Notes: generated by a model not told the origin, from the sequence alone. Positions 3,640-57,602 are shown, counted from the stretch's first letter. The stretch: DNA of 64,000 nucleotides from Amia ocellicauda (GCF_036373705.1 NC_089855.1:18085962-18149961); one strand, 5' to 3'. Numbers and translations: made by a program.

Positions 3640-4857
3640 CACTCACCTAAAGGATTATTAGGAACACCTGTTCAATTTCTCATTAATGCAATTATCTAAC
3701 CAACCAATCACATGGCAGTTGCTTCAATGCATTTAGGGGTGTGGTCCTGGTCAAGACAATCTCCTGAACTCCACACTGAATGTCTGAATGGGAAAGAAAG
3801 GTGATTTAAGCAATTTTGAGCGTGGCATGGTTGTTGGTGCCAGACGGGCCGGTCTGAGTATTTCACAATCTGCTCAGTTACTGGGATTTTCACGCACAAC
3901 CATTTCTAGGGTTTACAAAGAATGGTGTGAAAAGGGAAAAACATCCAGTATGCGGCAGTCCTGTGGGCGAAAATGCCTTGTTGATGCTAGAGGTCAGAGG
4001 AGAATGTGCCGACTGATTCAAGCTGATAGAAGAGCAACTTTGACTGAAATAACCACTCGTTACAACCGAGGTATGCAGCAAAGCATTTGTGAAGCCACAA
4101 CACGTACAACCTTGAGGAGGATGGGCTACAACAGCAGAAGACCCCACCGGGTACCACTCATCTCCACTACAAATAGGACAAAGAGGCTACAATTTGCACA
4201 AGCTCACCAAAATTGGACAGTTGAAGACTGGAAAAATGTTGCCTGGTCTGATGAGTCTCGATTTCTGTTGAGACATTCAGATGGTAGAGTCAGAATTTGG
4301 CGTAAACAGAATGAGAACATGGATCCATCATGCCTTGTTACCACTGTGCAGGCTGGTGGTGGTGGTGTAATGGTGTGGGGGATGTTTTCTTGGCACACTT
4401 TAGGCCCCTTAGTGCCAATTGGGCATCGTTTAAATGCCACGGCCTACCTGAGCATTGTTTCTGACCATGTCCATCCCTTTATGACCACCATGTACCCATC
4501 CTCTGATGGCTACTTCCAGCAGGATAATGCACCATGTCACAAAGGTCCAATCATTTCAAATTGGTTTCTTGAACATGACAATGAGTTCACTGTACTAAAC
4601 TGGCCCCCACAGTCACCAGATCTCAACCCAATAGAGCATCTTTGGGATGTGGTGGAACAGGAGCTTCGTGCCCTGGATGTGCATCCCACAAATCTCCATC
4701 AACTGCAAGATGCTATCCTATCAATATGGGCCAACATTTCTAAAGAATGTTTTCAGCACCTTGTTGAATCAATGCCACGTAGAATTAAGGCAGTTCTGAA
4801 GGCGAAAGGGGGTCAAACACAGTATTAGTATGGTGTTCCTAATAATCCTTTAGGTGA

Positions 4858-4911
<54 letters not shown>

Positions 4912-7900
4912 CATACACACACTGATCAGCCATAACATTATGACCACTGACAGGTGAAGTGAATAACACTGATAATCTTATTATCATGGCATATGTCAGT
5001 GGGTGGGATCTATTAGGCAGCAAGTGAACATTTTGTCCTCAAAGTTGATGTGTTAGAAGCAGGAAAAATGGGCAAGCGTAAGGATCTGAGCGACTGACAA
5101 GGGCCAAATTGTGATGGCTAGACGACTGGGTCAGAGCATCTCCAAAACTGCAGCTCTTGTGGGGTGTTCCCAGTCTGCAGTGGTCAGTACCTATCAAAAG
5201 TGGTCCAAGGAAGGAAAAGCGGTGAACCGCCGACAGGGTCATGGGCGGCCAAGGCTCATTGATGCACGTGGGGAGCGAAGGCTGGCCCGTGGGGTCCGAT
5301 CCAACAGACGAGCTACTGTAGCTGAAAAAGTGAATGCTGGTTCTGATAGAAAGGTGTCAGAACACGCAGTGCATCGCAGTTTGTTGCGTATGGGGCTGCG
5401 TAGCCGCAGACCAGTCAGGGTGCCCATGCTGACCCCTGTCCACTGCCGAAAGCACCTACAATGGGCACGTGAGCATCAGAACTGGACCACGGAGCAATGG
5501 AAGAAGGTGGCCTGGTCTGATGAATCACGAGTTCAAGGTGTTGACTTGGCCTCAAAATTCCCTTAAAGACTTAAAGAATCTGCTACTAATGTCTTGGTGC
5601 CAGATACCACCACACACCATGACTCGACAGGTCTGGGCTGTTTTAGTGGCAAAAGGGGGACCTACACAATATTAGGCAGGTGGTCATAATGTTATGGCTG
5701 ATCGGTGTATATCTCTAGTGCAATTCTATAACATATAAAAACCCTTCCAATTTAGTTTTAATAATTGTTGAATAATATATTGTAAAATGTAGTTCTAAAA
5801 CTACACTCAGTTTAACATGGTCACCAACACCACTGCTGCTATTTTAGTTACCGAATGAATTTGTTGCACACGAACACTAGTTGTCTGAATCCAGGCACAC
5901 ATTGTACACACAGGGCTGTGAGCTCACCTGTAATTTCTTTTTTTCTTTTCTGAATGCAGAGCAGATATTTGAGACGCTTAAAACAGACCTCCAGCAGCAT
6001 ATTAAATCTCTTCCTCGCCAAAGGCCTTACAGCTGGGCGCTGGGCCACGGCTGTGCAGTGATGGGCTCTGACATGCTGTGGTACCGAGCAGAGGTGCTGG
6101 AGGTGATGGGTGGGAATGTGAAGGTTAGTGCTCACTCACCGTTACTAATGATCACCTGCACTGCAGTTTGATTTCCAGTTCCTGAAAGAAACACGTACAG
6201 GTCCCTAATATGCCAGCCTGTTGCTTGTTAGTTGGGACGGAGTATGATGCAGATGTTTTGTTAATGCTTATGCAGTTGGGAACATGTCACGACCTCAGTT
6301 GGTCGATGGGTCGAATGGCCTCCTTTCGTTTGTAGACTTTCAACTATAAAGAAATTGGGTTATTTTTTCTTTTGTACCTGTTTGGAGCAATGAAGTGGTT
6401 TACATTTCTCCGTGGGACAGGTGCGGTATGTGGATCAGGGGCTGATCGAGAACATCCCCATGTGCCACATCATCCCCACGGTCCTGTATAAGGAAGTGCC
6501 TCGGCTGTGCATTCCCTGTCAGCTCCATGGAGTTATACCTGTAAGTGCCAATGTCATAAGAGTATTTACTTTTAACTTTGCAGAACAAAAGAAAGAAACG
6601 AAGGGAGGGTAAGGGTGTTGAATGTTATAAGTGGAATTTCTGAGTAAATATCCGGGCTGAGAAAAAGGAATCCATTATGTTCTCGTCCAGGTGTCGGTCT
6701 TGGAAGCATATACTGTCTGAGTCACTGAGGCAAATGCTGGGCTCTCTGCTTTTCTCTACAGGGGACTTCATGTAGGATTGTGGCATTAAGATTCCCAGAG
6801 TTTTCTTGATGCTGTGTTCTCTCCACAGGTTGGCACAGTTTGGCAGACCGATGCAGTTGCTTTGCTAAAAGAGTTACTTCAGTGTCGATCTGTTGATATG
6901 CAGATCATGGTACAGTATCCTTATACAATACAGTATAGAAAGCATAAGGTGTTAAAGCATTTGTTCTGAGTGGATTTAGTTTGTAATGTGAAACAATGTA
7001 AATGCAGGAAGAAGTAGCTCAACCAGTGAAAACCTCTTCATGTAGATGCACCATTTGGCAGTTTCTTGGGAGAGCACACATGCATTACAGTACTGTTTAC
7101 TAATAAAAACATGATTACCATGTGAGCAGAGTTGTAGGCACTGTGTTGTCCCTACTTGTGTGTGTGAAAGGCATGCGAGTCTTTTCATGTGTGAAAGACT
7201 AGTCTGGGATGTATGAATGACACAGGTGTGTGTTTGGCGGCCTGTTGTAGGAGCTGCCCTCAGAGCCGCTTGGCAAGGTGACAGTCCAGATCCATTTTGA
7301 CGGGATGACTCTGAGTCGTATCATGGAGCACCATCGGCACGCCTCGCGGGACCCCTCTGTCAGCGTGCCTGAGGTACGGGACCGCAGCCAAACCTGCGCA
7401 CTGAGCCGATGTACTGTGCTGCTGGAGTCTCGGCATTGTATGACTGAAAGTATCTTGTCTTGCCAGGAAGCTCTAATGACTTCATCCAACAAAGAATTGG
7501 AGAACTGGGACTTAAACATCATGGTAATATATTTTTTATATATATACTAATGATAAAAAAAATATCCTCTACCAAATTCTTAACAAGGTGCTTTCTGTGC
7601 AGGGACTGACAGACGAAAGGCCGCTGCCGGGACTCTTCACTTATCCTCCATTCCCAGACACTGGAGAGCACTTTCCTGTCAGAATCAAACACATCCGCAC
7701 CCCTAACGAGGTACTGTCACCAGCTGAGAGAGCTGTTATGGTCTGAAGCTATTTTCAAACTTTCTGACCTCAAGCAGACCAGACCAATGTGAAACAAAAA
7801 AATCACTTCAGTCTTCTGGTAGTAACATGCCCAGCTTGACCATTTAGCTCACATTTCTTGTGAAACTGTCTTCATCTAACCCACTTGAGTATGTTTTTTG

Positions 7901-8455: not shown

Positions 8456-9676
8456 GAAATGCATTTAGAATCACCTACACAAAGCCCTTTTAATATAGAC
8501 ATTCACAGAACAGTGTTTATTTGTGCAATAAAAATGCCATTTAAAAATAACCCTGAGACACCAGTTTACAGATGCATAAAGTAAAGCTGTGTTGGGGAAA
8601 AGATTAATGAAGATGATGAGAGAGGATCAGCTTTCAAATTACACATTAATTTTCCAATCTCAATATCCATTTGGTTAAATAAGGAGTTTTACTTTCATGG
8701 GGAGTGTTCTGTGACACTATTGCTCTTTTATTCTTTATTCTCCTTCCAGAGGCCCCATGCTTGGCAAAATACAGTGATGGCAAATACTACAGAGCAAAGT
8801 TACTCAAGATTGAGAACTTCAATCCTGTTAAAGTCCTAGTGAGGCATGTTGACTACGGTTCAGATGACTCGTTGACCACAGACTGGTAAGGTGGCGTTGC
8901 TTTTCTGATTTTGCCAAATGTGATCTGGAAATGTTTCCTCTTAGATTATATAAATTTCAGAAATGCATATTCAACTATTTCTGTGTTAATCATTAATTTT
9001 TACACTTAAGTCAAGCTATAACCCTCACTCCGATACGTGGGAATGGGATAGAGAAAGGAAGTCCGTGGCATCGGTCACAAGATCTCCTAACTTGGTTTAC
9101 AGACGGAGGCTGAGTTCAGGGACATTTAATCTCGGAGCTAATCTAGACACAAGGGTGCAGGAGATTGGCCTGCTGTCTGCAGAGAAATACTCCCCACAGG
9201 GCAAGTCAAGCCCATGCCCCTGTGCCCGTCTACAGAGGGGAAGCACAGGACATCCATAGTTCTATTTATTTTGCAGCCTGCGTGAAATCCCTGTGGAGCT
9301 CCTGCAGTACCCGTGCCAAGGAATCGAAGTGAAAGTGGCCGGGATTAGGCCGCCTGAAGTTGATGATGAAGAACAGAGGTTGTCCTATAAACCGGAGTGG
9401 AGCTTAAAATCCATAATCGAGATGATGGATCTGCTGCATGGAAAACAGCTGACTGCATCTGTGCTGGTGAGGGTTTCAAAAATGCAAAGGCCAAGGGGTG
9501 GGGGGTGGGGGGTGGGGTAGGACGCCTTCATGGGTTCACTGTGTATAGAATTTAAAACTGAAAAAAACATTTTCCATTAGTCAACAGAACCCGAAATCAC
9601 AGCACATCTGTATGATGAAGACGAAATGCTGGTACTTTTGCCACTCGTGGACAAAGGTCTTGCTGATTTAATGTAG
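396..9676 (+). CDS. rnf17: 3' portion of a multi-Tudor-domain protein gene, most likely rnf17 (tdrd4). The gene start lies upstream of the window. 13 coding exons are listed individually.
   Basis: Repeated extended-Tudor signatures in spliced exons (G.C.A..DG.WYRA.V; VRYVDQG..E.IP; YRAKLL...[14 protein letters not shown]; LV.EGLA). The gene lies tail-to-tail with cenpj, as RNF17-CENPJ do in human 13q12. All junctions are phase-consistent. Confidence 0.7.
1175..1265 (+). CDS. rnf17: rnf17-like exon ([30 protein letters not shown])
   Basis: Acceptor tctattgcag|G, donor GTTAAG|gtaaca. The phase links exon 396-508 to exon 1550-1665. Confidence 0.55.
1550..1665 (+). CDS. rnf17: rnf17-like exon, Tudor C-terminal part (…[30 protein letters not shown])
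   Basis: Acceptor tctccctgttag|GAAAAT, donor AGGAA|gtaaga. It carries the V.VAD.LV.EGLA Tudor ending. Confidence 0.6.
1781..2031 (+). CDS. rnf17: rnf17-like exon (linker plus start of the next Tudor: …[26 protein letters not shown])
   Basis: Acceptor tttatgttacag|T, donor CACGCAG|gtctgt. It lies in the ORF 1692-2039 frame. Confidence 0.65.
2101..3609 (-). mobile_element. Degenerate Tc1/mariner (Tc1-like) DNA transposon A. The transposase is broken by frameshifts. Long terminal inverted repeats (about 200 bp) begin CAGTACTGT.CAAAAGTTTTA.GCAGGTGTGAAAAAAT.
   Basis: Minus-strand ORF fragments 1770-2441 (…[17 protein letters not shown]…[16 protein letters not shown]) and 2715-3095 (…WTDESNFE). 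A matching inverted repeat lies at 2101-2290 versus 3420-3609. The element sits in an intron of the rnf17-like gene. Confidence 0.8.
3609..3638. repeat. (GT)n(TA)n compound microsatellite between Tc1 elements A and B
   Basis: gtgtgtgtgtgtgtatatatatatatata read directly. Confidence 0.9.
3639..4861 (+). mobile_element. Compact Tc1-like DNA transposon B with an intact transposase ORF and about 30-bp perfect TIRs (ACACTCACCTAAAGGATTATTAGGAACACC)
   Basis: The TIR at 3639-3668 matches the reverse complement of 4832-4861. It encloses ORF 3788-4828. Confidence 0.85.
3788..4828 (+). CDS. Tc1-family DDE transposase, 346 aa, uninterrupted (HTH/paired-like N-terminus, DDE core with …DDE… QQDNAPCHK…[14 protein letters not shown])
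   Basis: Full-length ORF in the six-frame track. It shows canonical Tc1 motifs ([44 protein letters not shown]). Confidence 0.85.
   Translation: MGKKGDLSNFERGMVVGARRAGLSISQSAQLLGFSRTTISRVYKEWCEKGKTSSMRQSCGRKCLVDARGQRRMCRLIQADRRATLTEITTRYNRGMQQSICEATTRTTLRRMGYNSRRPHRVPLISTTNRTKRLQFAQAHQNWTVEDWKNVAWSDESRFLLRHSDGRVRIWRKQNENMDPSCLVTTVQAGGGGVMVWGMFSWHTLGPLVPIGHRLNATAYLSIVSDHVHPFMTTMYPSSDGYFQQDNAPCHKGPIISNWFLEHDNEFTVLNWPPQSPDLNPIEHLWDVVEQELRALDVHPTNLHQLQDAILSIWANISKECFQHLVESMPRRIKAVLKAKGGQTQY
4862..4912. repeat. (TG)n(TA)n microsatellite between Tc1 elements B and C
   Basis: tgtgtgtgtgtgtatatatata… read directly. Confidence 0.9.
4916..5708 (+). mobile_element. Internally deleted (non-autonomous) Tc1-like transposon C. 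TIR CAC(A/C)…GATCAGCCATAACATTATGACCAC. It is flanked by TA.
   Basis: ORF 5111-5566 encodes only the N-terminal HTH part of a Tc1 transposase (…[21 protein letters not shown]…WSDESR). It then jumps to the C-terminal tail (…KGGPTQY, 5469-5675). Terminal inverted repeats lie at 4916-4950 and 5675-5708. Confidence 0.8.
5960..6123 (+). CDS. rnf17: rnf17-like exon, Tudor domain (…[29 protein letters not shown])
   Basis: Acceptor tgaatgcag|AGCAG, donor GTGAAG|gttagt. The phase fits exon 1781-2031. Confidence 0.75.
6421..6540 (+). CDS. rnf17: rnf17-like exon, Tudor domain continuation ([40 protein letters not shown])
   Basis: Acceptor ccgtgggacag|GTG, donor ATACCT|gtaagt. It starts and ends in phase 0. 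Confidence 0.8.
6829..6909 (+). CDS. rnf17: rnf17-like exon ([27 protein letters not shown])
   Basis: Acceptor ttctctccacag|GTT, donor ATCATG|gtacag. Confidence 0.7.
7251..7373 (+). CDS. rnf17: rnf17-like exon ([41 protein letters not shown])
   Basis: Acceptor cctgttgtag|GAG, donor CCTGAG|gtacgg. Phase 0 at both ends. Confidence 0.6.
7603..7710 (+). CDS. rnf17: rnf17-like exon, start of the last Tudor ([36 protein letters not shown])
   Basis: Acceptor ctttctgtgcag|GG, donor AACGAG|gtactg. Confidence 0.7.
8215..8335 (+). CDS. rnf17: rnf17-like exon ([40 protein letters not shown])
   Basis: Acceptor ccaccaaactag|ATC, donor CTCAG|gtacag. Confidence 0.65.
8420..8453. repeat. poly(T) homopolymer of about 34 nt in an rnf17 intron
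   Basis: Read directly. Confidence 0.95.
8750..8885 (+). CDS. rnf17: rnf17-like exon, Tudor core ([45 protein letters not shown])
   Basis: Acceptor ctccttccag|AGG, donor GACTG|gtaagg. Confidence 0.8.
9277..9466 (+). CDS. rnf17: rnf17-like exon, Tudor continuation ([28 protein letters not shown]…[15 protein letters not shown])
   Basis: Acceptor tttattttgcag|CCTG, donor GTGCTG|gtgagg. Confidence 0.75.
9581..9676 (+). CDS. rnf17: rnf17-like terminal coding exon ([31 protein letters not shown])
   Basis: Acceptor ttttccattag|TCA. It is in frame to a TAG stop at 9674-9676. It carries the Tudor C-terminal LV..GLA motif. Confidence 0.55.
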   Translation, partial: STEPEITAHLYDEDEMLVLLPLVDKGLADLM

Positions 9677-16600: not shown

Positions 16601-18328
16601 CAGAAAGTGCCACTTGAAACTGAGAATATGAGCTTCTGAAATAGCACACAATGAAACACATAGCCCATGCCTTGAGAGCTTTGCTGGTTGTGAACTAACT
16701 TGTCCCCATTTGCGTACCTGTCCCCTGTCTGTAAGAGTTCTTCCTGTGAGGCATCATCTCCGTCTGGGCCCCGGAGGAGGGACTCTTGTGTCACACGGGG
16801 CTTCCTGGGCTGAGGTGTGTCTTCATAAATACTGCTTCTGTGCAGCTCTTCACTACTTGGACCTTCAGAAGAGAGGCTTTGTCCTGTTGAGGGAAGAACA
16901 TGTTATTTTGAAATATAAATGATCTTCCAGTAAAGTAATAATTGGAAATCATAAATGTCTGGTTTCACAGAGCTTGAGCAGCACGGGTCTAAAACTTCTC
17001 CATGTAAAATAACATTGAGTCCATGACTACTGCTAATTTGGGTCTCAAATCGTATTAAAATTGTATGTATATTTAGTCAAATTATATTTTCCTCAGATAG
17101 GTATCACAACAAAGCAATTACACTGGAAATGTTATACTTCTTCTACACCGGGTACCTCAAGAACATTCCTAACTAGATCATGTCAGGTATAAATCACTGA
17201 ATTATACTAAGAATAATATAGCCTACATGTATACTCTGAGCTGAATGTTTGTTTCCCAGGAGTTTTACCCATAGTTGCATTTGAATCTTCCTCTTCTTCG
17301 GTATCTGGATCACAGGGGCTCCCTAGTACACTGTTTCTCAACGTCCGGTCTGCTTTCTGCTCAGGGGATTCTGCCTGCAGCGCTAAGGAATACTGCTCCA
17401 CAGGGACTCTACAGTCAGTCACACTGGAATAAGTGTGTACATTTGGTAGTGAGAAAAGTCCCTTTGAAGCATCGTAGGCAGACATCTCTTCATTTTCAGC
17501 AGGCTCGGGCATCTTGGGGTCACCTGTATAACAAGAGAAATACAGTTGCTGGTAATGGCATAACTACCGATCCACTCAAATTATTAATTTTGAAACCTAC
17601 ATCCACAGTGTTACCTGTGAGGGCCTGCTGTGCAGACACCATGTGGAGCAGTCTCTGCTGCTCCTCCAGTAGCCGGTGGAGCTGCTGCATCTGGTGGAGC
17701 TTGAGTTGTTCCTGCTTCTGCTGCTGCCACTCCTTCAACTGAACACACAGAGCCACGGTTACAAAACCCGGGCCCTAACCCTCTTATTACACACAACTCA
17801 CAACCTGCTCTTGAAACAAACCCAAAATGTGCACAATACACTAGCAGCCTATCCAGAACTGGAATTTGTAATATTGGGCATAAAATATACAATTACTAGT
17901 TGTACCTGTTCAAGTTTCTGCATTAAGGGAAAGTCATGCCTCTGTCTAGTGTTGCCAGCCTCATCCATGCTGTCTAGCTCCCGGGACAGACCTTCAGAAG
18001 TTGCAGGTGATGAGATAGTGTTCAGTCCAGTGGGCTGGAGGGCTCTGATGTCAAACGAAGTGTCACCCTCCTGGTTTGAGGTGCCTTTAGCTGCAGCATC
18101 TGCCAGCAGAAGGGAGTCCACACTGAGGCAGCTACTGTTATTTGACGCAGGGAGTGGGACGAACTGGGTGGAGAAAGAATCATTGACATCCTCTGGCATC
18201 CAGGTGGCTTTCAAGGGGCTAACGAAGTCCAGTTGATGATTCAGTATTACCCCAGCCCGGGAACTGCATGGCATCCACTGAGCTAGAATGTTTGATTCTG
18301 ACTGCAACCCAGCTGAAGATGACATCAT
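10436..18328 (-). CDS. cenpj: Centromere protein J (CPAP/SAS-4 homologue), a complete CDS of 16 coding exons. The C-terminal G-box/TCP10 repeats are recognisable.
   Basis: Block-wise similarity to human CENPJ: N-terminus …QWM…SRAGVILN; a [13 protein letters not shown] exon; a large 1.5-kb central exon with [27 protein letters not shown] and FPSLKPKPK; coiled-coil exons ([30 protein letters not shown]); G-box repeats [22 protein letters not shown] and [32 protein letters not shown]. Confidence 0.9.
11004..11124 (-). CDS. cenpj: cenpj exon (G-box: [40 protein letters not shown])
   Basis: Acceptor ctccttacag|AAAAGC, donor GAAGCT|gtaagt. Confidence 0.8.
11227..11311 (-). CDS. cenpj: cenpj exon ([28 protein letters not shown])
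   Basis: Acceptor cttgttcag|ATTTAC, donor CAAATCG|gtagga. It matches human …[20 protein letters not shown]…. Confidence 0.8.
11662..11802 (-). CDS. cenpj: cenpj exon ([47 protein letters not shown])
   Basis: Acceptor tttttcag|ATAGAA, donor GAGTG|gtgagt. It carries the canonical G-box. Confidence 0.85.
11922..12011 (-). CDS. cenpj: cenpj exon ([30 protein letters not shown])
   Basis: Acceptor gttctgcag|AGCACG, donor GGAAAG|gtagga. Confidence 0.75.
12280..12395 (-). CDS. cenpj: cenpj exon (…[38 protein letters not shown])
   Basis: Acceptor ctgttacag|TCAAC, donor CCTCCT|gtaagt. Phase-consistent. Confidence 0.65.
12733..12805 (-). CDS. cenpj: cenpj exon ([24 protein letters not shown])
   Basis: Acceptor ttctttcag|AGTCC, donor GAGAG|gtaaag. 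Phase-consistent. Confidence 0.6.
13079..13324 (-). CDS. cenpj: cenpj coiled-coil exon ([63 protein letters not shown]…QRAKST)
   Basis: Acceptor tgctgcag|GTGCTG, donor TCCACT|gtgagt. It matches the human ETKWSSTHSRLR block. Confidence 0.85.
13631..13796 (-). CDS. cenpj: cenpj coiled-coil exon ([55 protein letters not shown])
   Basis: Acceptor cttcattgcag|GAAGG, donor ATGCAG|gtgaga. It is near-identical to the human [18 protein letters not shown] block. Confidence 0.85.
14151..14283 (-). CDS. cenpj: cenpj exon ([44 protein letters not shown])
   Basis: Acceptor tatctttcag|GGAAC, donor CCTGAG|gtatga. Confidence 0.85.
14426..15971 (-). CDS. cenpj: cenpj large central exon (about 515 codons; [26 protein letters not shown] … [27 protein letters not shown] … [10 protein letters not shown] … AEQAS)
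   Basis: It extends ORF 14301-15824 in the same frame. Acceptor tatttaaag|GGCCCAG, donor CATCAG|gtagat. Confidence 0.85.
16313..16421 (-). CDS. cenpj: cenpj exon ([36 protein letters not shown])
   Basis: Acceptor aatgactag|GCCAAT, donor GCAGCAG|gtctgt. It matches human [21 protein letters not shown]. Confidence 0.85.
16534..16554. repeat. poly(A) homopolymer of about 21 nt in a cenpj intron
   Basis: Read directly. Confidence 0.9.
16718..16883 (-). CDS. cenpj: cenpj exon ([54 protein letters not shown])
   Basis: Acceptor ccctcaacag|GAC, donor GGGGACAG|gtacgc. Confidence 0.7.
17269..17523 (-). CDS. cenpj: cenpj exon ([40 protein letters not shown]…[12 protein letters not shown])
   Basis: Acceptor tatacag|GTGACC, donor CTATGG|gtaaaa. 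Confidence 0.7.
17615..17738 (-). CDS. cenpj: cenpj exon ([41 protein letters not shown])
   Basis: Acceptor tgtgtgttcag|TTGAAG, donor CTCACAG|gtaaca. It matches human [27 protein letters not shown]. Confidence 0.85.
17906..18328 (-). CDS. cenpj: cenpj first coding exon. ATG at 18328 ([32 protein letters not shown]…[10 protein letters not shown]). The exon extends 7 nt further into the 5'UTR, to 18335.
   Basis: ORF 17849-18328. Donor GAACAG|gtacaa at 17905. The human N-terminus …LTQWM…SRAGVILN is conserved. Confidence 0.85.
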
Positions 18329-19058
18329 TTACTTTCTTCAGGGTATCTTGATGGCAGGGTGTATAGACATGCTAATAATTTCCTTCAATTACTGTGCTTC
18401 CTATCAAGACCTGGTGAATTCAAACACAGTTGAGTAACAATCACTAACAGATGCATATAACGACCAGTTTAAAGCAATTCCCCTCAATATATTTTACATG
18501 ATACCGTGCATTATATAGCTAGTGCTTATCTGTTTTAATACAAAACACTTATCACAACCCAAATCAATCCAAATCAATAATGTAATTCTATTAAATGTAC
18601 ACGTCAAAGTGCTTCAGTGACGTGGTGTAAAGAATATCGTATGCAAAATTATTATATCGGACATCGACAACATTGCATGGTTAACTAACAACAGGCAAAA
18701 ACTTTATTGCATTATTAGTGTATTTCATTTTCCAAGACAGAATAAATGTATTCTTACCAAGGCCTTAGGTTCAAAACGTTTTGTTATTTAGAAATTACCC
18801 TGACAGATTGCGTTGAAAGTGAGCATCCCCACTTTCTGCATAATACATTCGTTGCAATTAACAATATTTGAAGTACTTTACATAGCATATATAAGATTGT
18901 ATGTGTTGCCAATATTAATCAATGCATTTTGTTTTACTGTATAAAATACTACTACTATATCAACTGTAACTCCTACAACTAACTACATTATACCGCTGTG
19001 CAAATAATGCGTATTTGATATAATATATAGATTCCATTTGAACGTAAAGGTTTCTTAC

Positions 19059-19200
19059 CTAATATTTTCCAAAAGCTCAAGTACACACACATTGACAAAC
19101 TCCGCGCTCCCTTAGAAACAGACAATACATCTTTCCGAATATACCGCCATATAAAAACAATGCCCGCGAGAGAGCGGCAGTTCCCACCGGCGCTGTGGAT
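19059..19200 (-). other. cenpj: Putative non-coding first exon (5'UTR) of cenpj. The TSS is not determinable from sequence.
   Basis: A consensus donor (minus) TATTAG|gtaagaaacc lies at 19058-19053. It sits directly downstream of ZNF143/CCAAT/ETS promoter motifs. The coding exon at 18335 has an acceptor and no upstream in-frame ATG of its own. Confidence 0.45.
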
Positions 19201-19950
19201 TCTGGGAATTGTAGTAACAGCAGGCGACCATCTACGTTTGAAACATTAGGGAATTCTGATGCTGAACTACGTTTCCCATAATGCAGTTCTCGATGTACGT
19301 TAAAGGGACGAGGTGGTGACGTAATGTTAAAGGTCGCGTTGTGGTGCAGATTTACGCAGATCTGCGCTGCTCCGACAATGGGATTGGAGGATTTCTGCAG
19401 ATCTGCACAGAACTGTGGCAATCTGCGCTACAAGAACGCGAGCATACGCATTTTAAATAAATCTGCAGTGTTTGTTTACATTACACAAGGCGGGAGGAGG
19501 GCGCTAAAGTTACAGATGATAGCCGCTAACTTTGGGTCAAACACTGTTACCAATATCTGATGGTTCTTCTCAAAATGTAACTATGGACTCGACATTGTTA
19601 CAGTTAGGTAGTTGCTGCCTTTAAAATGTATATATATATATATATATACACTTTACTTAAAAACAAAACAAAACAAAACCAAAAAACTAGCGCGGAGCAA
19701 CTGAAGTTGGTACAAATGAGACGACTGCAAACATCCAAACCACACACAGCTCCTTGCACCAACGGTATAATTACATGAAACTTAGCGGGCGAGAGGAGGC
19801 TAAATACAGTTTCATTTTTAAAGGTTTATACTATCAGATGTCCACTAGATGGGAATATAGATCCCATTCTTCATAAACTGAGGGTGAAAAGCAGGCTTGC
19901 TATACCCGGAAGTGCGAGTCAGGCAGGACCGGGATTGGCATTTGCAGTTG
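19060..19950. promoter_or_regulatory. cenpj/parp4 head-to-head (bidirectional) promoter region
   Basis: There is an elevated-CpG interval of about 0.9 kb between the divergent first exons. ZNF143 SBS-like motifs lie on the minus strand at 19198-19219 (ACTACAATTCCCAGAATCC) and on the plus strand at 19265-19293 (ACTACGTTTCCCATAATGCAG). ETS/GABP CCGGAAGTG lies at 19905-19914. CCAAT (ATTGG) sites lie at 19381-19386 and 19933-19938. Confidence 0.6.
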
Positions 19951-20030
19951 TGTTTTCACTCGCCAGACCCCGACCAGCAGCCGCACTTCGAGCTGATCCC
20001 CCGGCACAGCTGACGTGGGAAACTACACAG
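19950..20030 (+). other. parp4: Putative non-coding exon 1 of parp4. The start is approximate.
   Basis: A strong donor ACACAG|gtacat ends at 20030. The ATG-containing exon 24380-24511 has an acceptor (aacttgcag|TTAATCATG). Confidence 0.45.
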
Positions 20031-23000
20031 GTACATATTTATTTCATCTAAACACTTCGATACACAAAAGCGATCGTTTATTCAGAAGTATTTGAACAGC
20101 TGATATAAGCGTCACAGACTGGGGGAGGGGTGCTGTGTGGACTTACTTGACAATAAATGAAAGTGCCTACATGTAACGCAACATGTTTGAAATGTTGAAA
20201 ATGGAGTGCGACATCAGACCAGTGACATTGCATTTATTTACACTCATTAGGTGGTTTATCTTGCAATGTAACCTATCTGTAAAGCTCATTTTGATTGGCG
20301 AGAAAAGAAGACACTAGTGAGAAACACCCAGTTGTCCCCTAAGGGCTTATCAGAATAAAAAGGCATAACTTCAGTTGTCAAATGGTGGGTTAAAACCAGG
20401 GAGCATGAAACACAAGTGCTGTTCTGACCTGGATCAAAGATTACCTCGACCAATAGACCAATATAACAATCACCTGATATGTTGTAATGCAATACATCTA
20501 ATTGTGTGTGGAAGGTTGACTAATATCCTGAAACCCAACTTGCTGGTAATGAAAAGGTGTGTTGAACCCAGGTAAAGAATTGAAGTCTTAACGCACAGAG
20601 GATAATGTATTTATTTAACATGCCAGCCCTGGGAGCTCTGACATGGAAGCTCTCCACCTGAGTCTCTCTGAACAGCAAGATATTTACAGCTTTCATACAA
20701 TGCATGCCATGTGGTTCAGTGGGCAGAGTCAGTCACAGGCTTCCAAGAAGTGGAAGGTCAAGTCTTGAGGTCAAGTTCCTGGCCTTTGTAATGTCCTTGG
20801 TTGTCTTCCTGGGGGAAGGTGTGGGATGTGGAAACCAGATGGCTTCCTTGGATATACTGGGAGAGGTCTAGTCCCAAGGGTCATCATAGCAACTGTTATT
20901 CAATAACCATGATGTGACTGCTCCAGCCTTAAGATAAGCCACAGCAATGCATGAAGCAAATGCTGGGAGGGACTTTTGCTGCGTCCACACTCGTAAAAAC
21001 AGCCTCACTAACATTTGTTTGCTTGACAATTAATACAATTGGCTCTGTTGACGTATTAGTATTTCAAACATGAGTGTAAAACATTATACAGCATATACAA
21101 AGCATTAATACGGGCTCTTCAGGTGCATAAGGGGATTATTAATGGTATAATATATTTTCTTATTTCATGTTGTTGCGGTCCTCCTGCCAATACTTGTTGT
21201 TATTATTATATACATATATGAAATTACATGTCGAGTCTCATGTCAGCCATACAATCACTGTCAGCAAATAAAATACAATCTACATTTTATATTTTATATG
21301 TTGCTATTTTATATTGTTTTTAAATCAATCGTACATGATCAAACATCAATATACCCAATGTATGTACAAATACAATTTGTACCTATCAACTGGACTCCTC
21401 CCTCCCTCCAGTCCCTGTGCAGTGGCAAACTGTTTAATAAACTAATTCAGGATAACTGAATCAAATTTAGGAAGATTCCTGCCCTAGTGTCCCCAGGTGG
21501 AAGGGGCCCCAACAGGTTTTCATTTACGATTCTCATGTGATGTCAGAGCACATTTCAAAACCACACCAAGGAACAGCCCGGGGGAAAGTAGGGGGTACTA
21601 ACAGGCCAAAATACATCGGATTGCTTGCATATTGGTTCACATCTTCGCATGCATACTGTATCAGTTTGTGTGTGTACTGAAACTATATTTAGCCTCCCCT
21701 CAAGTGGGCGGGGCAGGACTAAGACGGACAAAAGGAAATCAAGGCGGTAACAGCAGTGTGATTTAACTCATCTGAGCAAGACATTACAGATTACTTTTAA
21801 GTATTGATGGCTGTATTCAAAACACGTATTACACACCAACATTTCAATTGGTTTATTGTTCTCAAATTATCTGATTCTAGAGCAGGCGATGTGCAAAAGA
21901 ATGATTTATTTTTAATAAAGTTTGTGTATTGGATGAATACAATTCCATTAATTTTCTGAATCTCAAATAAGAGGGCTGTAAGCGAGGCTATATCTACCTG
22001 AATCATATTGTTTAGATTTATTTATCAATGTGTTTTTTCTAGTAATGTGTGTTCATACAGAGTTGTAGACTTAATCACATTACCAGTGAATGTTGAAATC
22101 ATTTAATCCATCACTTATTTTGCTCTAAAACACATGATTTTCTACACATCACATATTCATATATTATTATCACGATTTGTTTTATTATCAGATTTGATTT
22201 TCTGTTCATAATTATATGTCTAATAATTTTGTCTTCCCGATTATGATGTTTATATTGAATCCGATAGTTGCAACAGAGCTGTTTATTTCCTTTATGAAAG
22301 TATCGTTAATCTAATAAATAATATTATTTATTTCTAAACAGATTACCTTGTCCAGGGTGACTTACAATTAAATACAATTACAATATACAATAACTTTAGT
22401 GCTAGTAAGAGCAAGTGTCAGAGACAATTCCATTAAATACAGTACTACTGGTAATGAGTAATTAGACACCATACAATTCATTTTCCTGATAATAATAATA
22501 ATACATGTTATATTGTAATGCAATTATTGTTAATCTAATAATACAAAGCCAATATAATATTATTTGTTTAAATAGGTGTGTAAAATATTAGAATATTGGA
22601 CAAATAATTGATCACATTCAATATTGTTGAATTTCGGATATAGTCCAATTATTAAATGCAATTATTTATTTTATTAGGAGAGAAATGAGAATGAAATGCC
22701 AGATATTACTCTTATGGATTATTATAACTGGAATTTTTTTTTTGTATTCATTAGCTATGTTCAGTTTTTATTTTGAGACAACATATGCAAGGATTCTAAC
22801 TTGCTTAAATGCGAGCATCCAGAGTAAGAATGGGAGACGAGCTTTTCTCAGAGTGCAACTATGTAAAATGCAAATGTATCTTGTGAGCAGTGTGGGTCTG
22901 AATGAATGTCTATCTGGTCAACATTTAATTTGCTGAGATTTCTACTCTGATGAAGTAAAGTGTTTACATTTACTGTACTTTACATTTTGGAAAAGAGCTT

Positions 23001-23250: not shown

Positions 23251-24385
23251 TTGAGTCCCGGCCTTGAATCCAAGACTGTATTACTAAGTATTAATTTATG
23301 CGGAAACTATTTGTGATAGAGACTTGTGTTTTTTGTGCTGCATACCTGAGTTTCTGAAGAAAAGGAGGGTGTGGTTTGTTTAAACAGCATCTTTCCTGGG
23401 TTCTGCAATCCAATGTGCAACTGCAGAACATCGGCATGGTATTGTCCAGTAGAAAATACGTTACTGTGGTATATGCGCAGCCCTAAAGATCTTTGTTTTT
23501 TCACCAAATCACAGACTGTGACTCTGAGAATATCTAGCCGATCCAAAGGACCCTCTGAAAGCCCTGGAACTCGGCTGATAAGGCAGGTGTCAGGTTAAGC
23601 ACTGCTTCACGGTAGTAGTATGCATGTATACTATACTTATAAGGCAGTATTTGAGTGGAAAATGTGCATGATTAGGTTAGGGTTAGGTTGATTGGTTTCT
23701 CTAAACAACTGTCTAGTGCTTTTATATGGTCATTTATCACTGGTGTCCCAAATTCTGCCTGACTCACCCCACCTAAATAGGGCTTCCCCAGCTCCACATT
23801 TCCAATTTAACCCCTGGTATGCACACAAACTAAGATAGTATTCACACAAACCAATATAGTATTCAAGCTGCCCCATAGAAAAGACGAGTGGAAAGGGTGT
23901 ATGAAAGAAAAGGAAATGCGTTTTAAATGTTCACTGCTACATCTTGTCTGCACTGCTTGCTGGCTTGTTTTGTATGCGTGTGTGATTGTATGTATTAAAA
24001 AAAATAAGTAAACTTATTTAATTTTGTAATATAAGTTTTACAATTATTGAACATTATCTGTTTGACTACTGTCTCCCACCACACCTCTCACTATAATTGC
24101 CATCAAAAAGTGTCATAATCAATTAAAGGGGTCATACATGACCAAAAATGACTTGCATAGGCAGAAAAAGGCTATGTGGGACTAAAAAATTTCACAGGTG
24201 ACCAAAACATTTAATGATTTATGCAACCATAAAATATAATATGCAATAGGACTGGATTTAAATAAGAATTTTACATTTTATATATTATATTTTGGAAAAA
24301 CATAAATTTTAACACTTTGGCCTTTCTGTTCACTTATGTGAGGTCTTGACTACTTAACTTGACTTTACTTAACTTGCAGTTAATC

Positions 24386-24511
24386 ATGCCGGTGTTTGAG
24401 AACTGCCTTGTGGCTCTGGAGGTGAAGGACCTGCCCATCAAAGAAAAGAACAACTTAAAGAAATCGATAACCGCAAATGGAGGGAGCATTACTTATGTCA
24501 TCAATAAGAAG
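24386..24511 (+). CDS. parp4: parp4 first coding exon ([42 protein letters not shown]). The exon starts at 24380.
   Basis: Acceptor cttaacttgcag|TTAATC, ATG at 24386, donor AAGAAG|gtattc. Confidence 0.85.
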
Positions 24512-33500: not shown

Positions 33501-36500
33501 CACAGTACACAGACTACTAAGAGGAGCTCTTGCTTTTCTCCCTATTGCTGTCTGCAGGCGTGCATGCTAGTGTTTTACCCGGCATTTGAGTCCAACACAG
33601 ACCCGGGTGAGGGGGAGGTTGTCATTCTCTTGGACACCTCCAATTCTATGAGGGGCGAGACCCTTCAGAATGCCCGGAGGATCGCCCTGCTGGCACTGAA
33701 GGCCCTCAACTGCAAGGTCAACATCCTCTTCTTTGGCACAGGTGGGTGCTGGCCAAAATAATTTGGACTTACACCTTTATTGGAAACACACAGTTGTGTC
33801 AAATCTTGTCAGTTCATCATTTTATTACATGCAGCGCCTTTTTATCAAGTCCTCAAATTGCTAGGAAATCACAATTGGAGTAAAGCATTGTGAGAAACAA
33901 GCAGTCAGTTCACTAATGATCAGAAGTATAAATCCAAACATCACAGTAGCATAATAGTTGTACAGTTAGGTCCATATATATTTGGACAGTGACACAATTG
34001 CCATCATTTTGGCTCTGTACGCCACCACAATGGATTTTAAAAGAAACAATCAAGATGTGTTTTCATCTTTAATTTTAGGGCAGTTACATCCAAATTGGGT
34101 GAACGGTGTAGGAATTACACCCATGTATATATGTGATCCCACCAATTTTAGGGGCTCAAAAGTAATTGGACAAACTAACATAATCATGAATTAAATTGTG
34201 AGTTTCAAATCCTTTGCAGTCGATGACTGCCTGAAGTCTGGAACCCATAGACATCACCAGATGCTGGGTTTCTTCCCTGGTGATGCTCTGCCAGGTCTGT
34301 ACTTCAGCTGTCTTTAGTTCCTGCTTGTTCTTGGGGCGTTTTGCCTTAGAAATCAAAACAAACCAATCAGAGAGATGGCAACAGCGTTAGGTGTGGCAAA
34401 ATCAACTATGTGGTACATTCTTAAAAAGAAAGAGAACGCACTGGTGAGCTCAGGAACACCAAAAGGCACAGAAGACCATGGAAAACAACTGTGGTGGATG
34501 ACAGAAGAATTATTTCCCTGGTGAAGAAAAACCCCTTCACAACAGTTGGCCAGATGAAGAACACCCTCCAGGAGGTAGGCATATCTGTGTCAAAGTCAAC
34601 AATCAAGAGAAGACTTCACCAGTGTAAATACAGAGGGTTTACCACAAGATGTAAACCATTGGTAAGCCCCAAAAACAGGAAGACCAGATTAGAGTTTGCT
34701 AAAAAAAACATTTGAAGAACCCTGTACAATTCTGGAACAACATCCTATGGACAGATGAGACAAAGATCAACCTGTACCAGAATGATGGGAAGAGAAGAAT
34801 ATGGAGAAGGGAAGGAACTGCTCATGATCCGAAGCATGTTATGGCATGGGCATGTATGGCTACCAAGGGAACTGGTTCGAAGCATACAGTGAAGGAAAAA
34901 AGTATTTGATCCCCTGCTGATTTTGTACATTTGTCCACTGAGAAAGAAATGATCAGTCTATAATTTTAATGGTAGGTGTATTTTAACAACAATAACAACA
35001 AAAAAATCCAGAAAAACACATTTCAAAAAAGTTATAAATTGATTTGCATGTTAATGAGTGAAATAAGTATTTGACCCCTTCGACTTAGTACTTGGTGGCA
35101 AAACCCTTGTTGGCAATCACAGAGGTCAGACGTTTCTTGTAGTTGGCCACCAGGTTTGCACACATCTCGGGAGGGATTTTGTCCCACTCTTCTTTGCAGA
35201 TCCTCTCCAAGTCATTAAGGTTTCGAGGCTGACGTTTGGCAACTCGAACCTTCAGCTCCCTCCACAGATTTTCTATGGGATTAAGGTCTGGAGACTGGCT
35301 AGGCCACTCCAGGACCTTAATGTGCTTCTTCTTGAGCCACTCCTTTGTTGCCTTGGCTGTGTGTTTTGGGTCATTGTCATGCTGGAATACCCATCCACGA
35401 CCCATTTTCAATGCCCTGGCTGAGGGAAGGAGGTTCTCACCCAAGATTTGACGGTACATGGCAAAACATCCATCGTCCCTTTGATGCGGTGCAGTTGTCC
35501 TGTCCCATTAGCAGAAAAACACCCCCAAAGCATAATGTTTCCACCTCCATGTTTGACGGTGGGGATGGTGTTCTTGGGGTCATTCCTCCTCCTCCAAACA
35601 CGGTGAGTTGAGTTGATGCCAAAGAGCTCGATTTTGGTCTCATCTGACCACAACACTTTCACCCAGTTCTTCTCTGAATCATTCAGATGTTCATTGACAA
35701 ACTTCAGACGGGCCTGTACATGTGCTTTCTTGAGCAGGGGGACCTTGCGGGCGCTGCAGGTTTCAGTCCTTCATGGCGTAGTGTGTTACCAATTGTTTTC
35801 TTGGTGACTGTGGTCCCAGCTGCCTTGAGATCATTAACAAGATCCTCCCGTGTAGTTCTGGGCTGATTCCTCACCGTTCTCATGATCATTGAAACTCCAC
35901 GAGGTGAGATCTTGCATGGAGCCCCAGACCGAGGGAGACTGACAGTTATTTTGTGTTTCTTCCATTTGCGAATAATCGCACCAACTGTTGTCACCTTCTC
36001 ACCAAGCTGCTTGGCGATGGTCTTGTAGCCCATTCCAGCCTTGTGTAGGTCTACAATCTTGTCCCTGACATCCTTGGACAGCTCTTTGGTCTTGGCCATG
36101 GTGGAGAGTTAGGAATCTGATTGATTGATTGCTTCTGTGGACAGGTGTCTTTTATACAGGTAACGAGCTGAGATTAGGAGCACTCCCTTTAAGAGAGTGC
36201 TCCTAATCTCAGCTCGTTACCTGTATAAAAGACACCTGGGAGCCAGAAATCTTGCTGATTGATAGGGAATCAAATACTTATTTCCCTCATTAACATGCAA
36301 ATCAATTTATAACTTTTTTGAAATGCATTTTTCAGGATTTTTTTGTTGTTATTCAGTCTCTCACTGTTAAAAATTAAAATTATAGACTGATCATTTCTTT
36401 GTCAGTGGGCAAACGTACAAAATCAGCAGGGGATCAAATACTTTTTTCCCTCACTGTACTGCGAAAGCAACCCAAGTCTTTTTTTAAGGTGAAGAAGTGG

Positions 36501-45900: not shown

Positions 45901-46079
45901 CTAGTTATATGAAACCGTAATAGAGTAGTGTAAATTAAATTCTGCCTCTGCCCTGGTCAGTGTCAGTGATAATATCTCGTACTTTGAAATGAGTAAATGA
46001 GTAAATGAGTGAACTCTTTCAAATTGGTCTTGATATGCACGCCACCCTAATGCAAGCCCATTCAAGACAGTGTGAGGTG

Positions 46080-46473
46080 AGTGACACTGGCATTGGCGGA
46101 TCCAAGGGGATCGGTGCGATTCTGCAGATCTGCGCAGAACTGCGGGAATCTGCGCTACAAAGTGTGAGCACGGCGCGGGCATCCGGGGCTGCAGGCGACT
46201 ACAGCTGGAGATCATGTGATTGGTGTAAACTAAACTGCAGCGACTGTACTATTCTCCCTGGGATTGGTCGCCTGAGCGGTCTGTCAATACAACCTTTGAT
46301 CCCATTGGTGAACGTAGCGTCCTACACGCCCCGCCCTCCCAGACGGTCGCCCCGCCCCCCGAGACGAGAGGCAGCGCCTGCTCAGACGGCGAGGCCTGGG
46401 CTGTGGCGCAGACGTGCAGTCACCGCACAAGTTTGGTTTCGTAAGAAAGAAAAAAAAGCAAATATCAACAGAG
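46080..46473 (+). promoter_or_regulatory. mphosph8: mphosph8 CpG-island promoter / 5'UTR region
   Basis: Three inverted CCAAT boxes (ATTGG at 46217-46222, 46262-46267 and 46304-46309). GC boxes CCCCGCCC at 46328-46335 and 46349-46360. High CpG density immediately upstream of the ATG at 46474. Confidence 0.6.
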
Positions 46474-46584
46474 ATGGCGGACAAGGCTGCCGGGGCCGAG
46501 CGGTCGGAGCACGGCGACAGTGAGCAGGATGAGGAGGATGTGTTCGAGGTGGAGCAGATTATTGATGAGAGGCAAGACGAGGAG
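46474..46584 (+). CDS. mphosph8: mphosph8 first coding exon (MADKAAGAERSEHGDSEQDEEDVFEVEQIIDERQDEE)
   Basis: ATG at 46474, donor GAGGAG|gtgagc. Confidence 0.85.
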
Positions 46585-49500
46585 GTGAGCGGCTCGGCGG
46601 GGGCTGGGGCTGGGGCATACGAGCGCTTGTTGCTGCTGGGGACCTGAGGCTCCTGCAGCTGAACCCGGGACGACGGCGAGCGAAAGGCCGAGGCCCACTG
46701 AGCGGCCAGCCTGTTTACATACACAGCAGCTCTCTCTTCCGACTTCGTCACTCCTTTCCCGGGGGACATGAACGCCCCGCTCCGGTGTCTGTTTGTTTAG
46801 CCACTCGTCCCTGTGTTTTCTGCTCCAGTCGAGTTTGCACTGCAGGTTCTGCACAGGGTCATTCAGGGTTCACATGTTATCCCGAGGCTCAGCCTAGATC
46901 TGTGTGTGTGTGTGTGTGTGTGTGTGTATTCTGGTTTAACATGCATCGATAAAACTGACGTTCATTTGATAATGGTATTTGTTAGGACAGTTTGTCGCTT
47001 TATGTCTATATCGCTTAGGTAGAAGATGCTTGCTATCGCTTCATGTGCTCTTATATTTGTATAGGGAATTTGATCAGAAGTTTGTTTACATAACCGGCAC
47101 TGTTTTTGGTAATGTCATATTTTAAAGGTCACAGTTTTCTTCAGCTTAATAGTTTAAAAACTTGCACCACAGAAATACCCAGGGGCAGTAATGACATGTC
47201 AATCTGACATTTGTTTTTTAATGTAGTGGATATCTGCATATTTCAATTGATCAGTTTTGATTATTTTTTGCACATTGAGAGAGTTATTTATTTTGTTGGC
47301 CAAAGTTATTAATTATATTTTTAGTTTACAAAGAAAATGCTTGCAACCTGCACAATTCGTTTACTATGCATAATATGCATTTAATGTTTAATATTCATAA
47401 TTTGGCTATTGACTGAAGCATAGTATACCGCTACTATAGGCTATTGGTTGAACGGTCATCTTTCACTCATAACACCGTATTATTATTATTATTATTATTT
47501 TGAAGAAACACTATACCCATTCAGAAAGAAAATACATGGTGAGCTCTGTAAAAAATTGAGACCACTTAATATTGATTTCTGAACTTGGAGTGGTCTCTTA
47601 ATTTTTTCCAGAGCTGTATATAAACATTTATAGTATTAGACAGGATGGTTTCTTTTACATGTTCTCTTCTACAGTTTTTCATGAGAACACTGAGAGAACA
47701 GTATCTATATTAAACCAATATTGTATACTGGGTGCATGGACAACTGTCCTGTCTGGAATTAAGGCGATGCTTTGAAAACCATGCAAAGGAGTCCCGGTTA
47801 CAGCTGCACATGTCTATGAGGCAGTAATAATGTTCGATTTACAGCTCAACACCCTATCTGCTCCCGATCCGGTTCTCTGGCTGTGTCTGCTAGCCTGCTG
47901 CACCTGTTGCATGGCTGTATGTGCTCCCAGGAGTCTCCTGCTTCTGTGGCAGGTCGTCGAGGGAAGCCCTGTTCTTTGTGTCTGCAATTTAATCAGTCCC
48001 CCTGGAAAACCTTTGCCCAAGTCGCGCCAGGGTGGCTCTTCAGAGTTCAGCACCTCGGCACAACATTATACAGCATTATTTATAGTGGGACGCCCCCTCT
48101 CTCTTTATGCTGAGGCACACTCACAGTTGCACGCGTTTTTTGTTTTGCCTTTATAAAATGGCCGGGCTTATCGAATCATTCTTTAATTGTTGCACTTGGC
48201 AGGAATGTGAAATCTGTGTGTGCCAACAGGGATAGAACTGACTCTTTGGATAGTCTGTTTAATACATTAGGCTAAAGGCTTTGTACTTTTGGTGTCCCGT
48301 AAAGTGTCTTGGTCCACAGTACTTAATTCAGTGATGTTAATGCAAGCACAATTGTATATAGTTTCTGAAAGCCCTGAGATAGACGTTCAGGAGGGATGTG
48401 ATGGAGTGAACCCCTATCCAATAAAACTACACTAATCGTTGCTGGTTTAGTGTGATTCGGTGTGTTAAGAGAACACATTTAAAAAATGTTATTAATGGTA
48501 GTAATTTGTTGTTTAAAAAAAAGTGGAAAAAATATATAAAAAAGGGGCGTGGTTGCTATTAATAAATCACTTATGAACTTACCTGTTGTGGAGGGAAAGG
48601 GGGAGCTGGTCTGAATTTGTTGGGGTTGGGGTGTGGGTGGCCATGTTGGTGAAGGAAGGGTAAGGTGGTTACAGAGGCCAGGAGAGAATTGCAATATATG
48701 CTTGGCCATTAACATATTTATTGTATTAAGGTAGGCACTCTTAATTCTCTGGCCACAAGGGAAGGGTTCAGGTGGTTGTAGGAAAAGGGTGTGTGCAATA
48801 ATGTTTTGCTTTATTTTCTTTGTACTAATGTTGGTTTGTTTTTCTTCATGGTATTGGATATAACAACTGATGTTATTTATTTATATCATGAGGGTGTGTT
48901 ATGTACTGTTATGTACTTTCAGATATTGATATATTTATATTTTATTAATGGTCTGTTCTGGCGGGTGGACTTCTAGACCTTGGGTGATAAAGAGGGAGTG
49001 TGACTGCTAGGGGGTCAGTTGGGAGGTTGGGTTCCTACAAGGAGGTGGTCAGTATAGAGCTCTGCCTTTGAGCACATTGTTCCTGATTAACCAGGGTAGC
49101 TCTGGTTTTCCTGCTCTCAGTAGTTTTTGTTTTCTCTTGGGAAGGAATAGGTTTGTTAAAATCATTCGGTTTGTCTTTTTTGAAGATAGTAAACTGAATT
49201 AAAATAGTTTTTTTGATAACTGTCTATCTGGTCCTACGTGTTCCCAGCATTATAACACCTGACCCTGGGTCCGCAACAAGGGACTTGAAGACCCGACTAC
49301 CTTCACTGTAGTTCTGTTCCCTGATCCTGTAATATTGGGCATGGAGGGTCATTCTCGGGAAGTGTGGGTGGTCAGTTAACTGGCAGTGACCCATTTTGTT
49401 AGTTGAAGTCTTTGGTGTTATTCTCTCTCAGAGGTTTTTGTAACAGGGCTTGTTTTGTTTGTTTGCTGGTTATGGTGACACCACACCCAGATGTTTTTGT

Positions 49501-57571: not shown

Positions 57572-57602
<31 letters not shown>

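Follow-up and report, generated by a model that had tools for sequence, protein, structure and literature searches.

The genes cenpj (minus strand) and parp4 (plus strand) are divergent neighbors in the 64-kb window considered here, i.e., the whole stretch of Amia ocellicauda DNA that was analyzed, and the question raised by this arrangement is whether a single promoter region serves both. The first is a centriole-duplication and proliferation gene, and a microcephaly gene in humans, and PARP4 is the vault poly(ADP-ribose) polymerase. On the evidence presented below, the interval 19060–20030 is probably a shared promoter region of the two genes, with a core at 19144–19290. The coordinates of the features discussed are collected in Table 1.

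Table 1. Features of the cenpj–parp4 interval and flanking coding exons, in window coordinates.
Feature	Position	Strand	Description
cenpj exon 2 (first coding exon)	17906–18410	−	ATG 18328–18326; acceptor AG 18412–18411; donor after 17906
CpG-retaining patch 1	19000–19500		Observed/expected 1.1–1.4; holds the conserved core
Putative non-coding cenpj exon 1	19059–19175	−	Donor TAG/GTAAGA at 19059; CpG observed/expected 1.2–1.4
YY1-type core ATGGCGG	19144–19150	−	65 bp from the ACTAC end of the minus-strand SBS2; short motif by itself not above chance
SBS2-type site facing cenpj (predicted)	19191–19215	−	ACTACAATTCCCAGAATCCACAGCG; ACTACA extension + 18-bp Staf/ZNF143 binding site
SBS2-type site facing parp4 (predicted)	19266–19290	+	ACTACGTTTCCCATAATGCAGTTCT
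CRE/ATF-like octamer	19317–19324	+	TGACGTAA; not in bird islands
CpG-retaining patch 2	19900–20100		Observed/expected ~1.0; around the proposed parp4 exon 1
ETS/GABP-type site	19906–19914	+	CCGGAAGTG; only copy in window, 0.14 expected
ATTGG (inverted CCAAT)	19934–19938	+	5-mer expected by chance; not conserved in birds
Putative non-coding parp4 exon 1	19940–20030	+	Donor CAG/GTACAT after 20030; 5' end guessed
parp4 exon 2 (first coding exon)	24380–24511	+	Acceptor ...cttgcag at 24379; ATG 24386

Gene Identities and Orientation

Two minus-strand exons of cenpj were recognized, 18328 to 17906 and 15824 to 14301. The latter, of 507 codons, matched proteins named CENPJ in the protein-database search, with the top match in Acipenser at 46% identity, and the open reading frame from 18328 is the CENPJ N-terminus, matched by tblastn in sturgeon, grebe, and emu. 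On the plus strand, approximately 25 exon matches extend from 24386 to ~43300 (43279) in PARP4 order, and the approximate spliced parp4 sequence matched proteins named PARP4, the top one being from Megalops (tarpon) with 63% identity. Together with the best value of 46% for the fast-evolving exons of cenpj and mphosph8, this suggests a ray-finned fish that is either a non-teleost or an early branch. The divergent orientation that had been proposed for the two genes is therefore borne out by the named CENPJ and PARP4 matches, together with the tblastn matches of the N-terminal exon.

Neither an RNA gene nor any other coding signal was found between cenpj and parp4. Both ATG exons start at splice acceptors, ...caccag/G at 18411/18410 (minus) for cenpj and ...cttgcag/TTAATCATG at 24379/24380 (plus) for parp4, so that a non-coding exon must precede it in each gene. 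The parp4 ATG exon of paddlefish likewise has an acceptor a few nucleotides ahead of its ATG.

The Paired SBS2 Motifs

The motif ACTACNNTTCCCANNATNC, with at most one mismatch allowed, matches exactly twice in the 64 kb, at 19197–19215 (−) and 19266–19284 (+). The chance expectation is 0.04 per 64 kb, and two matches were obtained in 0 of 100 shuffles. The exact sequences are ACTACAATTCCCAGAATCC at 19197–19215 on the minus strand and ACTACGTTTCCCATAATGC(AG) at 19266–19284/86 on the plus strand, and the ACTACA ends of the two sites face each other, 50–51 bp apart. The reference SBS2 is ACTACAATTCCCATTATGCACCGCG (Ngondo-Mbongo et al., 2013; PMC3627581), and the rule for the Staf/ZNF143 binding site (SBS) is 18 bp with CCCR at positions 3–6 and C at position 12 (Anno et al., 2011; PMC3082894). 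Both sites, minus-strand TTCCCAGAATCCACAGCG and plus-strand TTCCCATAATGCAGTTCT, follow this rule, with CCCA at positions 3–6 and C at position 12. Directly 5' of the SBS, the ACTACAN element is exact on the minus strand (ACTACAA) and has one mismatch on the plus strand (ACTACGT). The motif scan thus confirms the paired, opposite-strand ZNF143 motifs of the earlier note, whose coordinates were 1–7 nt off, and the pair is a real regulatory candidate.

The Staf binding site is something that the interval has in common with snRNA / Pol III type-3 promoters. Staf/ZNF143 was first defined on such genes, and bidirectional pairs of a protein-coding and a non-coding RNA gene exist (PMC3082894), which might suggest that a small-RNA gene (of snRNA, 7SK, vault RNA, or tRNA-Sec type) is hidden here, with the SBS pair as its distal element. 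This is very improbable, however, as no Rfam family was found at gathering threshold in the window, the matches with E ≤ 1 in 18400–20600 were noise only, and a tRNA scan found none. The interval also differs from those promoters in lacking a PSE/TATA arrangement as well as a small-RNA gene. A small-RNA gene between cenpj and parp4 was accordingly rejected on the Rfam and tRNA scans.

Conservation of the Module in Birds

The same motifs occur between the same two genes in birds. In grebe, PARP4 and CENPJ lie head to head on contig VXAO01001669.1 (locus L004; CENPJ N-terminal exon 2760–2674 (−), PARP4 ATG 10001 (+)), and the only two SBS2-type matches in 42 kb, at 4453–4471 (−) and 4524–4542 (+), are located in the middle of the intergenic CpG island. 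The emu genes are also head to head (locus L008; CENPJ exon 4856–4770 (−), PARP4 ATG 10001 (+)), with SBS2 at 6768–6786 (−) and 6838–6856 (+), again in an intergenic CpG island. A YY1-type core (CCGCCAT on the plus strand) is found on the cenpj side in the window, grebe, and emu, and its distance to the ACTAC end is 65, 65, and 64 bp, respectively, with 51, 53, and 52 bp from one ACTAC end to the other.

The minus-strand SBS2 of the window aligns without gaps to ACTACAACTCCCAGCATGCCCGGCG in grebe and to the emu site. The blocks of the three-way alignment are the YY1 core, the minus-strand SBS2 including its GCG tail, the plus-strand SBS2, and then a short CGTT.A.GGG. Over the 72 bp from YY1 to the minus-strand SBS2, fish and grebe are identical at 40 of 72 positions in a gapless alignment, compared with 18.6 ± 3.7 for all other registers of this stretch in the grebe island, the highest value being precisely that of the orthologous register. 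BLAST of the window's intergene and intron 1 against all fetched loci found no non-coding similarity; as far as these alignments go, only the motifs and their spacing are conserved.

As the bird module has matching order, orientation, and spacing, chance or independent gain is not credible. The sequence comparison indicates that the module of YY1, minus-strand SBS2, and plus-strand SBS2 descends from the ancestor that ray-finned fishes share with birds, and the promoter cassette would be roughly as old as the bony vertebrates. Being common to fish and birds, the module points to an old, inherited shared promoter and not to a novelty of the lineage. The fish–bird conservation of the SBS2 pair argues for function, but not for any particular binding factor.

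SBS2 sites may descend from MLT1J retrotransposons (PMC3627581), and in the frog Dendropsophus (locus L006, 3630–3695) two SBS2-like motifs, each followed by CTGGAC, form an inverted repeat far from the promoter CpG island. Such observations would fit a reading in which the motifs are chance or transposable-element matches with no promoter role, yet for the pair in the window this can hardly be entertained. Two matches 51 bp apart stand against an expectation of 0.04, the window holds no further copies, and position, order, orientation, and spacing are kept in two birds, so that a chance or repeat origin of the SBS2 pair is effectively refuted by the bird conservation. A weighted consensus scan of 346 kb, comprising the window and the comparison loci, gave matches at the window, grebe, and emu pairs and the one frog pair only. 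The two frog motifs point towards each other as an inverted repeat, 12 kb upstream of the parp4 ATG exon and outside the CpG island there; they probably belong to a repeat that carries the motif, and the pair was not accepted as an orthologue.

It may also be suggested, tentatively and as something possible rather than probable, that YY1, 65 bp, minus-strand SBS2, 51–53 bp, and plus-strand SBS2 make up a geometry-constrained unit kept almost to the base pair since ray-finned fishes and birds had their last ancestor in common. If true, the fixed spacing would imply a defined multiprotein assembly setting both starts, e.g., two ZNF143 or THAP11–HCFC1 complexes plus YY1, and not a loose cluster of sites. 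Lineages in which the genes are separated (several teleosts, sturgeon, and presumably human) would then be natural experiments on split promoter halves.

CpG Content, First Exons, and Start Sites

CpG retention is the signature of an unmethylated promoter. The CpG observed/expected ratio is 0.37 over the whole window, and the cenpj–parp4 interval is one of two regions that keep their CpGs, the other being 46000–46800, at the start of mphosph8. The composition of the interval is thus CpG-island-like, with a GC content of only 0.41–0.49, which is usual for fish. Within the interval, CpG content dips at 19500–19900 between the two patches listed in Table 1, and the sequence from 20100 onward holds no further CpG-rich stretch before the parp4 ATG exon is reached.

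With a simple donor matrix, the cenpj donor at 19059 scored 8.8 bits, the top value between 18420 and 19260 on the minus strand, and as a prediction the cenpj exon 1 ending there is well supported. The position of the YY1 core would place the cenpj TSS at ~19125–19190. On the plus strand, the donor at 20030 scored 5.7 bits, second to 20384 with 8.3 bits, other donors at 19312/19315 and 19607 being weak (3.9–5.1 bits), and the parp4 exon 1 of Table 1 is one of several candidates. Both of the GT donors that had been claimed, at 19059 (−) and 20030 (+), are thus present, but the latter is the second best on its strand. The two non-coding first exons, and hence the two TSSs, are predicted positions; as the candidate donors are 971 bp apart, the TSSs would be ~750–850 bp apart. 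The description of this promoter in the earlier note as "compact" is doubtful, because the conserved core is 620–750 bp from the proposed parp4 exon 1.

An ETS site and an ATTGG had also been placed near the parp4 side. Both are there, and CCGGAAGTG is unique in the window, but ATTGG carries no statistical weight (further ATTGG/CCAAT occur at 19383 and 19550) and neither element is kept in birds; the search for a counterpart of the ETS site found none in the bird islands or in paddlefish. A TATAAA string is present at 19150, and "TATA-less" is therefore not a clear-cut criterion for this promoter.

The ~620 bp between the core and the ETS site, with the CpG dip lying in between, would agree with two adjacent independent promoters, in which the core drives cenpj only, plus an unstable upstream antisense RNA, and the ETS patch at 19900–20030 drives parp4, the genes being neighbors with no common elements to co-regulate them. 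The YY1 element is on the cenpj side only. In addition, no cenpj exon and no SBS2 motif was found within 10 kb upstream of the parp4 ATG in tarpon (L002), paddlefish (L003), or killifish (L007; a TMEM50-like gene lies upstream of parp4 here), and parp4 therefore does not need the module in all fishes. However, the plus-oriented SBS2 and the spacing are conserved from fish to birds, which makes use of the core by cenpj alone hard to explain. The bird CpG island is unbroken from the core towards PARP4, and a single SBS is intrinsically bidirectional (PMC3082894). Two independent promoters are considered unlikely here.

The bird CpG islands begin immediately at the plus-strand SBS2, and the CGTT.A.GGG block just past this site is kept from fish to birds, both of which would fit a shared promoter with the parp4 TSS adjoining the plus-strand SBS2 (~19300–19400). 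The exon at ~19950–20030 would then be wrong, alternative, or the 3' part of a long exon, and alternative plus-strand donors do exist at 19312/19315, 19607, and 20384. All of these except 20384 are weak, however, and CpG patch 2 together with the window's sole CCGGAAGTG fits a start near 19920–19960; a different parp4 first exon of this kind is considered unlikely. The reading preferred is that of a promoter region shared by cenpj and parp4 and extending over 19060–20030.

Several repeats were observed in the same region. Between the conserved core and the proposed parp4 exon 1, the sequence at ~19560–19700 is AT-rich and includes (TA)n and (AAAAC)n microsatellites, and 19470–19890 may have been inserted, in this lineage, into a promoter that was formerly more compact. 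A direct repeat (19489–19515 / 19786–19812) was dropped as weak on alignment. An element of ~60 bp at 19376–19433 is ~85% identical to 46103–46160 (E = 4e-12 within the window), with one copy in the cenpj–parp4 promoter region and the other in the mphosph8 promoter CpG island. Its sequence, ...GATT(T)CTGCAGATCTGC(A/G)CAGAACTG(T/C)GG(C/G)AATCTGCGCTACAA..., contains an GCAGATCTGC palindrome and repeated ATCTGCGC units. Either a short repeat associated with promoters or a regulatory module common to both could account for it.

Proposed Mechanism and Closest Known Promoters

The functional heart of the shared promoter would be the ~150-bp module at 19144–19290, consisting of the YY1-type element, an SBS2 towards cenpj, and an SBS2 towards parp4. 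By analogy with human SBS bidirectional promoters, ZNF143 (or its paralogue ZNF76) would bind both SBS2 sites and stimulate initiation both ways, with THAP11/HCFC1 competing for the ACTACA extension. Located just downstream, the YY1 element may help to place the cenpj start within the range given above, and a non-coding cenpj exon 1 of ~70–130 nt, ending at 19059, would be spliced to exon 2. The start of parp4 would either adjoin the plus-strand SBS2 or lie ~650 bp further on, in CpG patch 2 near the GABP-type site; in the second case, exon 1 would end at 20030 and the first intron would be 4.35 kb. Factor binding at the SBS2 and YY1 sites is suggested by analogy with promoters of known occupancy, and co-regulation of cenpj and parp4 by the general behavior of bidirectional pairs.

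The elements of this model have been described previously in other promoters. SBS are over-represented in bidirectional promoters, with 93% of those tested bound by ZNF143, and an SBS alone or an SBS-containing fragment suffices to drive transcription both ways (Anno et al., 2011; PMC3082894). At SBS2, binding of ZNF143 and binding of THAP11 exclude each other (PMC3627581). Initiation is the step at which ZNF143 acts, and there can be interplay between it and YY1 sites close by (bioRxiv 10.1101/2024.05.13.594008).

The closest known systems are the human Staf/ZNF143 bidirectional promoters, such as that of TMEM186–PMM2, or the BUB1B fragment with two SBS and two ACTACA motifs (Anno et al., 2011; PMC3082894). 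The interval resembles them in its head-to-head coding genes, CpG-rich intergene, one to two SBS with ACTACA, and an arrangement kept among orthologues, and differs in that cenpj–parp4 is known here from sequence and its presumed TSS distance is near the 1-kb limit of the definition. Both sites also resemble the SBS2 / THAP11(Ronin)–HCFC1 motif ACTACAATTCCCA... (Ngondo-Mbongo et al., 2013; PMC3627581), having ACTAC(A/G)N, TTCCCA, and NAAT(G/C)C with the right spacing. The minus-strand site fits the 3' GCG tail as well, whereas the plus-strand site departs from the motif at ACTACA position 6, where it has G for A, and in its 3' tail, which fits poorly.

The ZNF143/THAP11, GABP, and YY1 motifs form three classes at HCFC1-bound, active CpG-island promoters (Michaud et al., 2013; PMC3668359). 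The interval holds motifs of all three classes, namely the two SBS2, the YY1 core, and CCGGAAGTG, and cenpj is of the target kind described. Of these motifs, birds have kept the SBS2 pair and the YY1 core, which by itself is not above chance, whereas the GABP-type site is specific to the window sequence.

No published description of cenpj–parp4 as a ZNF143 bidirectional pair, and no published link of CENPJ or PARP4 to ZNF143, was found. The cenpj–parp4 promoter fits into a well-described class, that of the ZNF143-type promoters, as a typical case of ancient conservation, and as such would link a centriole-duplication gene with the vault poly(ADP-ribose) polymerase through a ZNF143-type bidirectional promoter. 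The conserved ~150-bp fragment suits reporter work on paired SBS2 and YY1 in divergent initiation, although its value in this respect is modest.

Gene Order in Other Vertebrates

The order in the window is a Tudor-domain gene at 5881–6171 (+) (Pfam Tudor; probably rnf17), cenpj (−), parp4 (+), and mphosph8 (+). The human order is taken here to be PARP4, ATP12A, RNF17, CENPJ. Goat chromosome 12 has the order ATP12A, RNF17, CENPJ, PARP4, MPHOSPH8, PSPC1 (PMC11874128). In the whale locus, PARP4 is followed by MPHOSPH8 on one strand, and the locus stops short of the promoter. Because the grebe, emu, goat, whale, and window orders agree, the head-to-head arrangement is ancestral and widespread, and the human order, as assumed above, would be derived. 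The suggestion in the earlier note that the head-to-head pair is special to this lineage fails, since birds have it too and goat has the same gene order. The synteny is corrected in this way (head-to-head pair ancestral, human rearranged). No new question of promoter biology is opened by the cenpj–parp4 promoter.

In tarpon, paddlefish, killifish, and one sturgeon copy, the two genes either are no longer head to head or lie too far apart for the range covered. In the last of these (Acipenser sinensis, L001), mphosph8 exon 1 is head to head with cenpj with no parp4 in between (1796–1885 (−) and 8891–9037 (+)), a state that may have arisen when, following the genome duplication in sturgeons, one of the duplicates lost parp4. 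This intergene includes 3.3 kb of N (4114–7432), upstream of the N-terminal exon, and the locus is therefore uninformative on the cenpj promoter.

The next gene after parp4 in the window is mphosph8, which spans 46476–58687 (+). Its chromodomain exons match the M-phase phosphoprotein 8 (MPP8) chromodomain in the PDB (E = 5e-20), and these are accompanied by ankyrin exons and a Lys-rich exon of 389 codons (53251–54420), the large exon matching named fish MPHOSPH8 with a best identity of 46%, in sturgeon. No CpG island in the window is as strong as that of the mphosph8 promoter (46000–46800), and a YY1-like AGATGGCGG overlaps the mphosph8 ATG at 46476. The window also contains Tc1/mariner copies at 3788–4828 (+), 35085–36099 (−), 1770–2441, and 5111–5566, one of which has an intact transposase ORF of 346 aa (HTH_Tnp_Tc3_2 + DDE_3), and a broken Sleeping-Beauty-like copy is present inside a parp4 intron.
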